From: a virus
Lineage: Duplodnaviria; Heunggongvirae; Uroviricota; Caudoviricetes
Direction: 5' to 3' (one strand)
IMG/VR virus record: IMGVR_UViG_2534682166_000005
Length of the DNA: 62,355 nucleotides
The first letter of the stretch is position 1. Every line of letters begins with the position of its first letter. Positions 15,001 to 21,000 of the stretch are shown piece by piece. Made by a program: the position numbers.

Positions 15001-18000
15001 TGTTGAATTTTTTGCTGCTGAATTTGCTGCTGATACTGCGGCAGTCCCATCGAAGCATAATATTGCGTCACTGCTCCCTGCGCATCACCGCCGTCCTGTG
15101 CAACCTTTATCGCTACCTGGCTGGCTCCTTTCTGAAGTTGATCCGCAGAAAGTCCCTGCTGCTTCGGCGTGAAATAGCCGAAATTTTTCGAAATTTCCGC
15201 GAATTTACTGCGATCCCTGACAAGCTCAACAGCCTTATCAACAGGCACCGCCAGCACGGTTTGATCATCAGGATGTGCACTGCCGTATTCCGTAACGGGT
15301 TTATGTGCTGTAGAGCCATCACTGTATGTGAGATCAAGGCCGATAAGTATGTACCCTTCCTGCTGTGCCGGTACTATACTGCCAATCCTGGCCTCTTTTA
15401 TCGTCTTTTTCCCGGTTGAATCGGGCATGCCAATACGCTGTTGCAGTTCCGGGCCAAACACCCCGGAAAGGACATCAAGATTCTCCGGCGTATTAAGTGA
15501 AGCGATAGCCCTGTCTGGCTTGTCATCAAAGATTTTTTGCAGGTTGTTCACGGCCTGACCCGCTTTCGCTACATAGCCATCATTCGCCATCAGCCTCAGC
15601 GGATTACCCTCTGACAACTGGCCGTAAAGACGCATTGCTGCATCCCGATCGCCAGCATCCACAGCCTTTCCAAGCGCCGCCATCACAGGCTGATCGCGCG
15701 CCAGCATATCGTTATACTCAAGCCGTCGCTGGTTGTATTTCTGCATCCGGAGTCGCTGCTGCTCCATACCCAGCGACGCATTCCGGTAATTCTGGTTGGC
15801 GTTAAACTCCCTTTCCTGCAGTGCATAATTACGGTCGTCGACTTTGGCTCTGTAATCAAAGTTCCGCTGATCAACGTCTTTATTATGTTCAAACTGCGAC
15901 TGTGCAAATTCAAAATCGCGCTCGTTATTTTTCTGTTGTTGAGCAAGCTGTGCTTCTCGCAAACCAAGTTCCTTACGACGGGTCATTGCCTGGTCAACCG
16001 TGCTGAATCCGGCAAGTAAACCCTGTGCAAATCCGCTCATTCACCACTCCTTAAAACAAAGAACCAGCAATACCACCTATGACAGCACCAATAGCCGCAC
16101 CGGGGAGACCACCAACAGCAGCGCCCATAGCTGCACCCGTACCAATTCCCGTGCCGATATTCTGTTTGTTCTGTGCTTTCTGTTGCGCCGCCATCATCTT
16201 GTTTGACGCCTCAATTTCTTCACGTCGTCTGTCTGCATCACTTATTCCCTGTAATGCCTCACGCCGTGACTGATTCGCAATATCCAGTAAACCGTATCCC
16301 ATATTTCCTCCTTAAGCTGACACCAGTTGTCCGCCAACACTCAGTTGCTGTCTTGCAGGTGCAGAAGCCCCCGTCAGTATGTTCATCTGACGATCCTGCT
16401 CTGCTTCACGGATACCATTTTTCGCGCCAGCAATTGCCAGGGCATTACGTAACCCCAGCGTATTACTGTTGGGATTATCAGGTCGGTTAACGCCATATCG
16501 TGCCATCTGGTTATCCTGCGCCATCTGCGCTGTACGGAGACTGGAAGTGGCAAGGCCGCCCACCCGGGCAAGCTGCGCATTCATCAGGCTGTTGTTCTCG
16601 CCAAGGTCAGCCAGCCTTGCCACGCGGGGCAAATATCTGGTTCGCCAGTCGTCGTATTGTTGGCGTGTCAGCGCTGCTGACGTCTGCCAGTCACCCTGTG
16701 GGCGGGCTGCTCCTGAATAACCAGCCCTTGCGAGAGTTTCGTATTTACCGTACTCCATAATCACAGTCTCCAGTTCTGAGCCTGATGCTGAATGGCATTA
16801 GCGCCGGTGCCAGGTGTTTTAGCACCGCCACTTCCTCCGCTACCGCCAGCCTTATGCATCGCATATGCACCAACCGCACCCAGACCAGCGCCAACAAGAG
16901 AGGCTCGCCCCTGCTGTTTCGTAAACGCAGCCTGTGCGTCCGATTTAGCTTTTGCCAGACTGCTGTCTGCCAGCGAGTTAAAACTCTGTAACGCATCCGC
17001 CTTTTGACCAGAACCGAGAGCAGCAACATCCTGTAGCCCGGCAACATACTTATCTGCCTGCGATACCTGCCCCCGTGTGGTTGTGTCAATCTGCCCGGTT
17101 ACCTGATCACTCTGGTTCGCATTCATTACCGCGTTAAAGCGACCACTGGACGGGTCAACACCGGACTGAGTAAGATTACCCGCCAGCTCCTTCCGTGCTT
17201 CGCCAAACTGTTTCTGATACCCCAGATTTGTGGTGCCAGCAATATTGTCGTACTGCTGCTCACTGTTAAGGTTATCGACCTTTTCCATGAAGTTATCTTC
17301 AGCCGGGCGGAGGATTTTTTGATAATCCTGCCACCCTTTCCAGGCCACTTCTTCCTGTGCTATTTGCGCTGCTGTTGGTTTTACTTTGGTATCACCACCG
17401 CCTTTTTTTCCGCCCATTATGGCTCCTCAGATAACAAAAAACCCTGCCGGGGCAGGGTCAGAATGTGAATTGCAATTGGTTTACACACGATAATGAATAC
17501 AGTGGCAGTCAGACCGCTATCCTGAACACCATGAAGCCATCCTCATCATCCGGCATTCGCTCAAAGCCCAGACGTTTTCCCAGCCGGATAAATCCCCGCC
17601 TTGCCGTGTGGAATTCAGCCCAGCGTCCGCCAGCCAGACGGGTTAATGTCTTCACCTCCGGCAGATAACGCTCAACACCGGCACTCCCCGTACACACACC
17701 CAGCAACACCAGAACATAAGGGATACCGTCGTCACTGAGCACAGAACGCAGCACCAGAAAACCATCCGGTGCCTCAAAGCAAAACGCCTGCTTTTTAAGG
17801 CAGGCGTCTTTAACTTCATTCATAAATTCAGGGTTGCGGGAATTTCTCACAACACGCTGCATATACCGGAGAATTTTGTCGTCCATTCTCTCACCAGAAA
17901 CGAGTGCCATATCGGCTGAACCTCAGCAACCAGTTGACGGGAACTTTCGTCCCCGTCGCGGTTTTCCTACTGCTTACACTGTAAGAACGCCGCAAACTCC

Positions 18001-21000
18001 GCCCCCCACAAATTCAGCCGGAGCTCACACAGCGAACCGTGTAACATCCAGATGGTGAAGATTACCGTCATACAAATTGTGACGGTGATGAGCGATTTTT
18101 GCGACATAGCGCTTGCCTCCTGAGTGGAGAGGCGCTAACCTTCTACTTGCTTAAGGTATGATGGTTAGGGCCTCGGGTTAAACAAAATGTTTGACTCGGG
18201 GCCTTTCCCCACATCAGGCCTTCAGGTTCACCTTCCAGCCATCAGCCGAAAGGCACCCGCGCATAATCTACGATTTTTGCCCTGCACGGGCAACAAAAAA
18301 CCCGCCATCACAGCGGGTTATGACATGTTGTCGGGTATTACTCAGAATTTCAGGCCAATGCCTGCAAATAAACCATCAGTTTTCCAGTCGCCAGAGCCTG
18401 AGCTTTCATAAGTGACGTCCATAGTAACACTTTCATTGAAGTTAAATTGCGCGCCGACAGACCATGCAATAGACGTTTTTTTGGTGCTGTTACTTTCAGA
18501 AAAACTACCGGCACCATGATTAAGATTGTCGTTAATTTTCAAGTCAGTGGTGACTTTTGCAACCCCCATACCAGCCATTGCATACACACTGAGGTATTCG
18601 TTAAACCGCCACGAAGGACCGGATAGTAGACTCCAGTAATTAGCCCTGATATCAGTTCTCGCTGAAGCTGCCGGGTTTTTTACCTCTCGTGATGGAGCGG
18701 AAGGCTTAACATCAATAAATGCCTGCGCATTAGTCATGGAGCGCGCCCATGTAAAAGAGGCTATAACACCCAGTTCATCAGTTATCTCGTAACGATACCT
18801 GATGCTCATCCCCAGGGGGCTTTTGGCTGTGCCGTCATGCCCCCGGGCAATAGCATTTTCGTATTCACCTGATGAATTAAAATGGTTTACGTTTACAACA
18901 TTCCTGAACGTATCCCGGTTATAAACACCCGCGTCTCTAACAAAATCCTTCAGCCCGGGGAAGCGTATGTGTGCAAACCCGAGAGATACCGTACTATCGC
19001 CTGATGCTGCATTTACCTGTGCAGTTAAGCAACTCATCACCAGAACTGCACACGCAAAAAATTTCATGATACTTTTCATTTTAAGTATTTCTCTGAATTA
19101 AAGGATGCGATGTCTGAAAGGAACGCTTTCGTTTTACACTATTAAAGTTTTTCTTACGCTAATCATATATTGAGGAACTAATAACCAGAACTTTATCTAT
19201 ATACGGCTTTCGGATATCCCATGTTGCACCACCGGAATAATGCTCACAGGAATATATTTTATTTCCTGTAGCACCAGTAGATGTGGTGTAAATCGGTCGG
19301 TCATAAGGTGTTCGTTTCCAGTTATAATATCCAACCAGTGCAGGCATAATTGCGCATGGATATCCAAGATCCTTCTCAAACTTGATATCAACTGGTATTA
19401 ACTTCGCGTCAAGCAGCATCATTTCGCCATGGTAAATCATCTCACCCGACGGGTTATACATGGCGATACCATACTCAGAAGGTTGAGTAACCATATTCGC
19501 AAAAGCATAAACAGTCGTAACACCGGGATTCGTTCCCCTGACAATTTGATGAAGCCTTAAGGCATGATATCCATCAATCTGTTCATGCGTGTACATGACA
19601 TCGGCCTTCTTCTCTGTTCTGATAAAGAAAAAACAACTTTTTCCTGACGGAATTGACGTTTTAAAAAAAGCCTTCTCAGTCGCCGGAATAGTTCCCTTAT
19701 TGATCAGACACTGAGGCGTAAACCCCGGGCTTATCCACAAGCTGCCATCTGGTTTCGTAATGCTTAAACCATACATACAACTCACCCCCAGAATGTATAA
19801 ATATATGACCCCATCCCCTGCTCAAGATTTGACCACGTCACCGTATTGCCATTAATGGTTATCTTCGGTACTTTCCGGTCCTTAAATACATTATTCCACG
19901 GAAATAATGAACAGACTGCCTGCAATGTTTTCCCTTCTGGTTTATTCGTATACGTTTTTGATCCCGACTCCGCCGTAAACCTGTCCAGGAAAAATATGGG
20001 AGTAAGCACGCCCGTAACATTAACGTTATTTCTGTTATAAATGGCAAAACCGTATTCCAATACTCACCTCCTGATCAGCGTAATCTGCCTATGCGAACAG
20101 CCAGTCGTCCATTCTGATCATAAACCTCAATTTTATCATTGCGGATCACCAGTCCTACATTCTGATTAGAGTAACGAATTGTCAGTTGCCCTTGTGACGT
20201 AACACTGAAAAGGCCTCCAATATTCAGGTTACCCTGAGAATCAACCTGAAAGTTTCCGTTCTGAATAACGGCACTCCGGATAACTGGCGAAGTGATACTT
20301 ACCCCAGCTTTTACCTCATCCGCCACAACCTTCCGCGACACCAGTGTTTCAATCACCGCGTCATAAATCATCGCTTTCGGGATCACTACCTTGCCACCTG
20401 ATACCGCAAACGGATAGGCTGTGTTATCCGGATTATTCGGGTCAAAGACAAACAACTGCGACGCAGAAATTGCAACCTGACTTACAGGCCTGCCTTCACT
20501 GTCTTTTCCGGCGACAATCCCGATCCCCGCAGTGATACCATCAACTCCCGCTTTTTTTGACCACATCGCAAGGAAGGCCTCACCGCCTTCTTTATCCAGT
20601 TTAGTGATGCGCTTGTCGACCTCATTAAGCGATTCACTGGTTGACGAATCCAGTGTGCTAATCCGGGTTTCAATACCAACAACCATTCTTGTCGTTTCTT
20701 CCCTGAGAGTCCCTACAACTTCGGTTGTCTTAATTGCAGCATCCTTTACAGCCTGCCCCTGCGCGTTTTTTATTTCTTTACGCAGCTCGGACACAACCGG
20801 CGACTTTGCAGCCTCATCGCGGATCTGGTCAATGATGGCCTTCACGCCGATCTGTGTTTGTGCCTGAGTGCCTTTTTCAGCATTCCATGGACCTTTCACT
20901 CCTGCCGCGTTAACAAAACGTATCCAGTAAAATCCCGACCAGCCAGGGTCAACCGGATCGCCGTAAACCTGCCCCGGCGTCGTGGCAACCAGCACTGCAT

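Follow-up and report, generated by a model that had tools for sequence, protein, structure and literature searches.

A probable type I hok/sok cassette of Hok cluster 72 between lom and the tail/ejection genes of a 933W-type prophage

The hok locus and its toxin gene

The IMG/VR virus record IMGVR_UViG_2534682166_000005 (Caudoviricetes), a stretch of 62,355 nucleotides (nt) referred to as the window throughout, encodes a 46-amino-acid (aa) toxin of the Hok family on its minus strand. The open reading frame (ORF) at 17967-18107 reads MSQKSLITVTICMTVIFTIWMLHGSLCELRLNLWGAEFAAFLQCKQ and possesses a Shine-Dalgarno (SD) sequence, AGGAGG at 18121-18116, spaced 8 nt from the hok ATG. Together with conserved RNA elements on both sides of it, the gene probably constitutes a complete type I hok/sok cassette, located as a moron between lom and the first gene of the tail/ejection block. 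The features of the locus are compiled in Table 1.

The 1-kb stretch around hok is 100% identical to chromosomes of E. coli O104:H4 (e.g., NC_018658.1, 2569748-2570748) and 91-98% identical to approximately 190 Shiga toxin (Stx)-converting and related phages of the Sepvirinae. RefSeq annotation of the matching copy describes a lambdoid prophage of the 933W type with the gene order integrase, early genes, Q antiterminator, lysis, N4-gp56-type capsid, tail fibres, lom, hok region and giant LPD38 protein.

Table 1. Features assigned at the hok locus and in its surroundings, listed in the direction of hok transcription (window coordinates)
Feature	Position	Strand	Basis or remark
lom	18342-19079	minus	Upstream neighbour of the hok cassette
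Intrinsic terminator after lom (9-bp stem 18319-18299, then T-run)	18293-18319	minus	Terminator scan
Predicted hok promoter (-35 TTGCCC 18293-18288, 17-nt spacer, -10 TAGATT 18270-18265)	18265-18293	minus	Conservation
Predicted 5' end of the hok mRNA, tac-like (GCGCGGGUGCC)	18252-18262	minus	Promoter geometry and homology with the start of the Rfam sok model
Variable upstream ORF (23 codons here), ending 21 nt before the hok SD	18143-18214	minus	Mostly conserved ATG
ucb-like alternative internal partner of the 5' end, also 5' arm of the Sok-target hairpin (GGAAAGGCCCCG)	18197-18208	minus	
Predicted Sok-like antisense RNA (approximately 60 nt, predicted ends)	18149-18208	plus	Fold of -28.1 kcal/mol
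Predicted Sok-like promoter (-35 TTGCCT 18113-18118, 17-nt spacer, -10 TAACCT 18136-18141)	18113-18141	plus	
Local hairpin locking the hok SD (AGGAGG 18121-18116) and the A of the AUG	18107-18137	minus	In the minimum free energy (MFE) structure of the window
Coding sequence (CDS) of the hok-family toxin, 46 aa	17967-18107	minus	Hok cluster 72; RefSeq WP_000078908.1; Pfam and phrog_251 matches
Conserved hairpin in the 3' untranslated region (3' UTR) (GACGGGGACGAAAGUUCCCGUC)	17936-17957	minus	Helix 8: 4 pairs changed on both sides
3'-UTR segment with predicted long-range pairing to 18143-18156	17921-17933	minus	Helices 3 and 4: 4 pairs changed on both sides
fbi-like fold-back element pairing with the mRNA 5' end (UCAGCCGAUAUGGCACUCG)	17901-17919	minus	Contains ATG 17910
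Core phage gene phrog_610, GNAT fold, probably 125 aa from ATG 17886	17509-17886	minus	Outside the hok cassette
Hairpin and U-tract within the CDS (ACGCCUGCCUUAAAAAGCAGGCGU UUUGCUUUG)	17775-17807	minus	Terminator scan, both strands
Intrinsic terminator after the GNAT-fold gene (8-bp stem 17459-17440, then T-run)	17433-17459	minus	Terminator scan

The 46-aa product matched the Pfam model HOK_GEF (PF01848) over residues 8-44 with 35.2 bits (gathering cut-off 22; E 9e-9) and the family phrog_251, annotated as 'MokW-like host killing', with an E-value of 8e-24. According to the published list, seven positions are conserved at >80% in the family (M1, C16, T18, L30, C31, E32 and E41 in Hok R1 numbering). 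All seven residues were located by hand mapping in the 46-aa protein at the R1 spacing (M1, C12, T14, L26, C27, E28 and E37), and C44 falls on the C/Y position 48 of the family. The cut-offs of the HokA equivalog model NF007290 of NCBIfam (40.9 vs. 89 bits) and of the Hok subfamily model NF007279 (24.7 vs. 73 bits) were not reached, and PADLOC returned zero matches for the three proteins checked. As judged from sequence, the protein is a member of the Hok family belonging to none of the named K-12 types. The original prediction, which had proposed a Hok/Gef gene on the basis of the 46-aa ORF and its AGGAGG ribosome-binding site, is thus borne out by the significant alignment to the family model, the seven conserved residues and the phrog_251 match.

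The toxin gene is not new, since it has already been annotated and catalogued, and a near-identical variant was reported to be toxic. PGAP/RefSeq labels the product 'Hok/Gef family protein' (WP_000078908.1), and in some phage records it bears the name 'MokW-like host killing' or 'host toxic membrane protein'. The exact peptide represents entry 1593 of Hok cluster 72 in the supplementary alignments of Escalera-Maurer et al. (bioRxiv 10.1101/2025.08.07.668861). In the same study, the cluster-72 peptides 72_1589 and 72_1621 were cloned under an arabinose promoter for toxicity assay, and 19_179, 60_1482 and 69_1540 were the only non-toxic constructs out of 45. Because 72_1589 and 72_1621 are absent from this list, both are counted as reported toxic. 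The former differs from the window peptide by one residue (L29F) and is identical to the copy of the Stx phage Sp5. By its own statement, the study covers coding sequences only, with Mok, Sok and mRNA ends outside its analysis; it gives no account of where the cassette begins and ends, of its missing mok frame, of the terminator loss or of the lom and GNAT neighbours. In the reference records of 933W and VT2-Sakai, the gap between lom and L0129/orf66 carries no annotation; the Sp5 copy in this gap, at approximately 44530-44908 of NC_000902.1, encodes exactly 72_1589. A literature search on L0129/933W yielded nothing. The literature found does not describe the layout of the subfamily (no mok, own SD, second long-range helix masking the Sok target), nor does it mention that 933W-type phages have lost the cassette terminator or that the cassette may be redundant with hokW-sokW.

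In total, 14 distinct full-length cassette copies (75-100% identical) were aligned, and the hok CDS is intact in all of them. Values of pN/pS were in the range of 0.04-0.76 in 9/10 CDS pairs, accompanied by many synonymous and conservative changes. A 15th copy, carried by an E. albertii plasmid, has a deletion and a truncation. In another 933W-type prophage (locus L008, 1539-1904), leader and 3' UTR are near-identical to the Sp5 type (compared with L007, 1539-1904, and L006). Its Hok CDS represents a very different allele (MPQKTIIVSILC...; pS of approximately 0.6 versus the window copy) that resembles the copy of the ure island, and the mosaicism is limited to the coding part of the cassette.

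Promoters, antisense RNA and predicted fold of the mRNA

The terminator scan recovered both minus-strand terminators that had been described as flanking the locus (18293..18319 and 17433..17458). The tail of the lom terminator overlaps the -35 box of the predicted hok promoter, which is kept in all contexts of the 14-copy alignment as TTGCC(C/G)-17 nt-TA(G/C/A)A(T/G)T. Likewise, a search of the opposite strand of the leader for a Sok-like promoter, as had been suggested, led to the predicted promoter TTGCCT-17 nt-TAACCT, the -35 of which overlaps the hok SD on the opposite strand. Its form in the 14 cassettes is TTG(C/A)C(T/C)-17 nt-TAACCT, with an invariant -10 (sense strand GGTTAGCGCC). In position, this hexamer is homologous to the -10 of sokW, the destruction of which by mutation (primers YO-421/422) abolished antitoxin activity (Takada et al. 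2021, PMC8621323). Both promoters were assigned by conservation and homology, not by consensus scan.

The predicted Sok-like RNA features a free 5' tail of 14-18 nt, followed by a long hairpin and UUUCC, and the same layout was predicted for 14/14 copies. Covariation within the Sok hairpin was weak in the automatic alignment (2 compensatory pairs). At gathering thresholds, Rfam finds sok at a second locus in the nin region only; the leader of the cluster-72 cassette was detected only in the E-value scan.

No ATG, GTG or TTG frame open into the hok start, as expected for a mok gene, was found in the window or in 10/13 other cassettes; hokW, serving as control, has such an ATG at -57. Every copy possesses its own strong SD (AGGAGG or AAGGAG) 7-8 nt before the hok ATG. 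Furthermore, an upstream ORF with its ATG at approximately -103 to -107 was recognized, the length of which ranges from 0 to 61 codons over 14 relatives without conservation of the frame. The upstream ATG is missing in copy L005 and is directly followed by a stop codon in copies L010 and L016. Since its length varies and the ATG is lost or stopped in some copies, this ORF is not regarded as a conserved analogue of mok. Relative to its closest relatives, the window copy carries a GG insertion (18210-18211) that shifts the frame of the upstream ORF.

Folding of the window mRNA (18262-17895) yielded an MFE z-score of -5.7, with nt 3-21 paired with the 3' end. The 5' segment GCGCGGGUGCCUUUCGGCUGA is invariant across the 14 aligned copies, and the 3' element, which reads UCAGCCGA...GGCAC(C/U)C across copies, is complementary to the 5' end. 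In the predicted folds, the cluster-72 cassette thus shows long-range 5'-3' pairing of the tac/fbi type, in which the tac-like segment and the adjacent positions 18249-18242 pair with the 3' fbi element. The duplex between the first 24 nt and the last 45 nt amounts to -31.2 kcal/mol in the window and to -24 to -34 kcal/mol in 14/14 copies. The next-best partner of the 5' end is the internal segment GGAAAGGCCCC (-24 to -29 kcal/mol in every copy), and the RNAalifold consensus pairs columns 4-15 with columns 56-66, i.e., it shows the internal segment as part of a 5' hairpin. In the paradigm of plasmid R1, the 5' end alternates between tac/fbi and tac/ucb pairing; the choice of the cluster-72 5' end between an fbi-like and an internal partner is read as the equivalent alternative. 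Moreover, the site 18143-18156, which is complementary to the 5' tail of Sok, is predicted to be masked in the full-length mRNA by pairing with the 3'-UTR segment 17921-17933. Columns of the underlying helices 3 and 4 were converted into window coordinates by hand.

The structure tested on the alignment comprised the tac/fbi pairing, the second long-range helix, the SD hairpin, a hairpin at the CDS end and the 3'-UTR hairpin. It is paired in 94.3% of all cells, compared to 35-45% with slid partners. Changes on both sides affected 8 pairs (29 cells), and 0/500 shuffles matched the cell count or the covariation score. These compensatory changes sit in the second long-range helix and in the 3'-UTR hairpin. 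Helices 1 and 2, which make up the tac/fbi pairing, vary on one side only and are paired in 97% and 86%, respectively; helices 5 and 6 of the SD hairpin are paired in 100% and 93% over 14 sequences. MAFFT misregisters the 3' end of three divergent cassettes, so that helix 2 is under-counted, and per-sequence duplex folding was used instead. In partition-function folding, the mean unpaired probability of SD and AUG was 0.28-0.34 for the full-length mRNA, 0.29-0.51 for the 3'-truncated form and 0.28-0.33 for the truncated form with a blocked Sok site. The direction of these modelled shifts would fit a conformational switch.

Compared to hok/mok/sok of R1, the cluster-72 cassette shares a Hok toxin with the seven conserved residues. 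By prediction, it also shares an antisense RNA encoded in cis against the leader, a sequestered SD, closure of the full-length mRNA of the tac/fbi type and a 5' end that can pair internally instead. It differs in the length of the toxin (46 vs. 52 aa), its own strong SD, the missing mok frame into the hok start and, in this phage, the lack of a terminator past fbi.

Portability of the cassette and its genomic neighbours

The cassette spans approximately 18293-17901 (about 390 nt). Sensitive BLAST with the query 18300-17880 against 5426 complete E. coli genomes located the cassette region in 1750 of them, with up to 9 copies per genome. Matches outside the 933W type cover only query positions 23-397, corresponding to 18278-17904 in the window. 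They reside after ogr at the ends of P2-like prophages (phage P88 included), in lambdoid prophages between gpJ and the tail fibre gene, in the ure-linked island of O157, and on IncI1 and IncF plasmids. In phage lambda, lom lies roughly at the position taken by the lambdoid hok cassette between gpJ and tail fibre. Since the cassette was found in several contexts with the same bounds, it is considered to be a portable, self-contained unit of approximately 390 nt. Its copies outside the 933W type feature an intrinsic terminator 20-45 nt past fbi, except for the IncI1 plasmid copy L016 (none detected). Four 933W-type copies are devoid of this cassette terminator; homology stops at approximately 17904, where the next gene adjoins. 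Transcription from the hok promoter in the window would first meet the terminator-like site at 17807-17775 and then the strong terminator 17459-17433. Going by lambda biology, late, Q-modified transcription would read through all these terminators.

An exact-pattern scan of one-genome-per-species contigs with the conserved C-terminal coding stretch returned 3 loci; the diversity of copies was hence drawn from E. coli genomes, phages and plasmids. Two of these loci belong to records titled Planococcaceae metagenome-assembled genome (L011) and Vagococcus sp. (L013), i.e., to Firmicutes, and L013 has a P2-type cassette 82% identical to that of the window. Both matches most likely represent contaminating enterobacterial DNA in the assemblies.

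With its own conserved promoter and its variable presence among syntenic phages, the hok cassette has the properties of a moron. It is absent in the Yersinia, Serratia, Pectobacterium and Aeromonas relatives, and another hok type takes its place in Salmonella. It resembles the lambda-type morons lom and bor as a small accessory unit with its own promoter in the late/tail region that is present, absent or replaced among syntenic phages. It differs from them in that it encodes a toxin-antitoxin system and not a surface protein, and in that its 3' boundary here lacks an own terminator. In the Salmonella relative (L019, 3480-4000; Logan SRR19552120), a different hok cassette is located directly upstream of the homologous GNAT-fold gene. 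This cassette looks canonical: its toxin of 50 aa (MEPQKLALF...) resembles the cluster-27 peptide 27_135, an ATG occupies the mok-type position, and an fbi element (GCACCCG) as well as a terminator of its own are present. Because a different hok cassette occupies this place in Salmonella, the junction before the GNAT-fold gene seems to have gained hok modules at least twice, which suggests independent acquisition.

The gene following hok is annotated as an ORF of 133 aa (17509-17910; WP_001387532.1, L0129 in 933W and orf66 in VT2-Sakai). Its annotated ATG at 17910 falls within the fbi element of the hok mRNA, and the PHROG profile begins at residue 9. Homologs from Salmonella, Yersinia, Serratia, Pectobacterium, Dickeya and an Aeromonas phage comprise 116-125 aa, and the Salmonella homolog begins at the methionine equivalent to 17886. 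Based on the profile start, the homolog lengths and the Salmonella methionine, the annotated start was probably mis-called, and translation probably begins at 17886, giving 125 aa. The protein is 95-99% conserved in 186 Sepvirinae records. Relatives without hok occur in Yersinia, Pectobacterium, Serratia, the Aeromonas phage phiARM81mr and one other host; there, the ORF is located between a tail-tip/fibre gene and a phrog_611-type gene, overlaps or abuts its upstream gene and is followed by the next gene after 8-9 nt, Yersinia excepted (256 nt). The terminator 17459-17433 lies in a gap of 91 nt, which measures 8-19 nt in 5/6 relatives and 256 nt in Yersinia. The ORF was syntenic and tightly packed in all relatives examined and does not behave as a moron. 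Given this synteny, its tight packing and its presence without hok, it is assigned to the core genes of the tail/ejection module, evolutionarily independent of the hok cassette.

The encoded protein has a GNAT fold. Searches of Pfam, NCBIfam and PDB profiles with the ORF family gave no sequence-level family match (PDB returned a chance hit only), and a conserved acetyl-CoA motif was not found in an alignment of 29 sequences, where the beta4-alpha3 loop is variable and the usual glycine-rich loop is not conserved. Among known proteins, the ORF product comes closest to the GNAT-fold acetyltransferases, including the small phage protein AcrVA5. A role as GNAT toxin partner of hok was rejected on the basis of its distribution.

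Within this gene, the codons D-A-C-(L/R)-K-K-Q-A-F-C-F form the 8-11 bp stem of the hairpin 17775-17807, followed by UUUUGCUUUG. The nucleotide sequence of the hairpin is kept from E. coli to the Aeromonas phage (also in L019, L021, L018 and L024-L026). Among 7 divergent homologs (down to 43% identity), 25 columns are invariant at the aa level, 7 of which also show an identical codon, and 5 of these 7 are located in the hairpin. This concentration of identical codons argues for selection at the nucleotide level, possibly on an embedded terminator or attenuator.

A second hok locus, distinct from the cluster-72 cassette, resides at approximately 46.0-46.35 kb and is a homolog of hokW-sokW. The Rfam sok model matches 46174-46348 with 110 bits, compared to 35.6 bits for the cluster-72 cassette, and a 51-aa CDS of the HokD/HokW type (46024-46179) adjoins this match. 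The hokW-sokW locus of Sp5 is the experimentally studied hok locus of Stx phages; its toxin comprises 51 aa and starts with MKQQKAM, its deletion lowers Sp5 release two-fold, and a second hok in Sp5 goes unmentioned (Takada et al. 2021, PMC8621323). The cluster-72 cassette shares with it the same kind of phage, a probable type I hok/sok organization, a similar leader (Rfam sok model) and the Sok -10 TAACCT at a homologous position; expression in lysogens and relevance at induction are likely. The hokW-sokW locus differs in its location in the nin region, its 51-aa HokD-type toxin (cluster 35) and its in-frame upstream ATG at -57 (MokW), for which the cluster-72 cassette of the window has no counterpart. 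Computed duplexes between Sok and leader are weak for non-cognate pairs (approximately -35 to -43 kcal/mol) compared to cognate ones (approximately -121 to -125 kcal/mol); for the window Sok with the hokW leader, -43 versus -121 kcal/mol for the cognate pair was obtained. Since non-cognate pairing is weak, the two systems are probably orthogonal. The earlier statement that two hok genes in one prophage are unusual holds across phages in general, where hok-carrying phages have one copy in 96.3%, two in 3.5% and three in 0.2% of cases (bioRxiv 10.1101/2025.08.07.668861). Within the 933W-type phages, the condition recurs, with Sp5 and Min27 carrying both loci.

The nin region (approximately 44110-46350) clusters further toxin-antitoxin and RNA elements besides the hokW-type locus. 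RefSeq annotates a Doc-family toxin as well as a RelE/ParE toxin with a helix-turn-helix partner, and Rfam matches to isrK (44220-44297) and C4 antisense RNA (44110-44194) were obtained. In the matching RefSeq copy, the interval from Q to the nanS-p esterase has no annotated stx gene. The prophage is therefore regarded as an stx-negative relative of the Stx phages, and its identification with the Stx2a phage of O104:H4 was rejected for the same reason. The sole feature found in the Q/nanS-p gap (approximately 40670-41436) was a match to the Rfam small RNA STnc100 (40894-41099, 165 bits).

Proposed regulation, alternatives and implications

Based on these results, the locus as a whole is best explained, with a probability of roughly 0.8, as a complete type I hok/sok cassette of cluster 72, inserted as a moron downstream of lom and ahead of the tail/ejection block, with the neighbouring ORF being separate from it. 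According to the proposed mechanism, a weak constitutive promoter (18293-18265) would yield the hok mRNA, the 5' end of which would fold onto 17919-17901 and thus close the molecule. In the closed mRNA, the second long-range helix would mask the Sok site and the local hairpin would lock SD and AUG. Trimming of the 3' end would free the 5' end for internal pairing with 18208-18197, and the remodelled leader would either expose the hok SD or admit the Sok-like RNA of approximately 60 nt (18149-18208, plus strand), whose binding would lead to decay or to re-formation of the SD hairpin. Translation would begin directly at the strong SD of hok, because no mok frame enters the hok start. Upon loss of Sok, e.g., at prophage induction or loss, the 46-aa peptide would insert into the inner membrane and depolarise or kill the cell, as for Hok R1 and HokW. 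The GNAT-fold gene would share at most a read-through transcript with hok.

Several observations weigh against this explanation. The toxicity data come from a peptide that deviates at one residue and was produced under a heterologous promoter and SD. Both predicted promoters are weak versus consensus (hok 8/12, Sok 7/12), and a scan requiring 9/12 flagged neither. The Rfam sok match to the leader (18096-18258; 35.6 bits, E 4e-6) remains under the gathering score of 59. The predicted accessibility shifts are small and missing in 3-4 of the 14 sequences. The copy of the window (O104:H4) carries the GG insertion in its leader and a C-to-U change at 17905 within fbi that leaves a G-U pair. Loss of the terminator puts fbi inside a longer RNA and may disturb 3' processing. 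Finally, hok translation in R1 requires translation of mok, and by analogy a mok-less copy could be translationally silent.

Some of these points would also fit a decaying, translationally silent hok relic, devoid of mok coupling and terminator and kept by hitch-hiking, which was considered improbable. The dependence of R1 on mok, the variable and often truncated upstream ORF, the lost terminator and the two changes of the window copy speak for it, and several chromosomal hok loci of E. coli K-12 are reportedly inactivated (Pedersen and Gerdes 1999). Decay is difficult to reconcile with an intact CDS in every full-length copy and pN/pS below 1 in nearly all pairs, with the conservation of promoters, SD hairpin and long-range helices, including compensatory changes, among copies 75-100% identical, with the strong SD retained throughout, and with the toxicity of cluster-72 peptides on expression. 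Absence of mok is moreover subfamily-wide, not a lesion of the window copy, and points to a different design. As a further alternative, the upstream ORF (18214-18143) might be the functional counterpart of mok, with Sok blocking its initiation and its terminating ribosome melting the SD hairpin, thereby coupling it to hok; this appears unlikely. An ATG with GAAGG 4 nt upstream in 13/14 copies, a stop 27-43 nt before the hok ATG in 7/14, an overlap with hok by 83 nt in L004 and, from the coordinates, the start of the predicted Sok duplex 4 nt past the AUG are in line with coupling. The length of 0-61 codons, the copies lacking the ATG or stopping directly after it, and the stop positions of close relatives (22 nt earlier in L002, which is 97.6% identical, and at -78 in Sp5) argue against it. 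In addition, the putative SD of the ORF is base-paired in both predicted conformations, and its ATG is not homologous in position to mok of R1 and hokW (-57/-58).

The original prediction had joined hok and the 133-aa gene into one moron bracketed by the two terminators. Taken as a functional pair under the hok promoter, this reading did not hold and was judged highly improbable, even though both genes have the same orientation with 56 nt between them in the annotation, the terminator past fbi is lost from the 933W-type cassette, the distal terminator resides in a gap that is wider than in 5/6 relatives, and the GNAT fold is also used by the toxins TacT, AtaT and GmvT and by AcrVA5. The cassette is mobile without the ORF (in >1300 E. 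coli genomes and on plasmids), and the five hok-less relatives named above have the ORF tightly packed within their structural operon. Furthermore, the Salmonella relative places a different, separately terminated hok cassette before the same ORF, the annotated start lies within fbi and the family start 8 codons further on, and the terminator-like hairpin 17807-17775 separates the hok promoter from most of the ORF.

Tentatively, and with less than even odds, cluster 72 may represent a mok-independent hok/sok design with its own SD and an antisense RNA that does not overlap the SD, acting through an RNA switch or a short, non-overlapping upstream ORF. In 933W-type phages, it may have become joined, with no terminator in between, to the GNAT-fold core gene and its deeply conserved intragenic terminator-like hairpin, and may be partly redundant with hokW-sokW.

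The regulatory layout, the terminator loss and the possible redundancy, which the literature found does not describe, are of modest interest. For the annotation of 933W-type phages, the start of the neighbouring gene was probably mis-called, its annotated ATG belonging to the fold-back element of the hok mRNA. If true, redundancy with the cluster-72 hok would explain why deletion of hokW-sokW merely halves Sp5 release. As the hokW-sokW study is the sole functional study of an Stx-phage hok and did not consider the second hok, phenotypes of single-locus deletions may be masked. Moreover, the presence of a mok-less subfamily in approximately one third of complete E. coli genomes offers a natural test of how Sok acts without mok.

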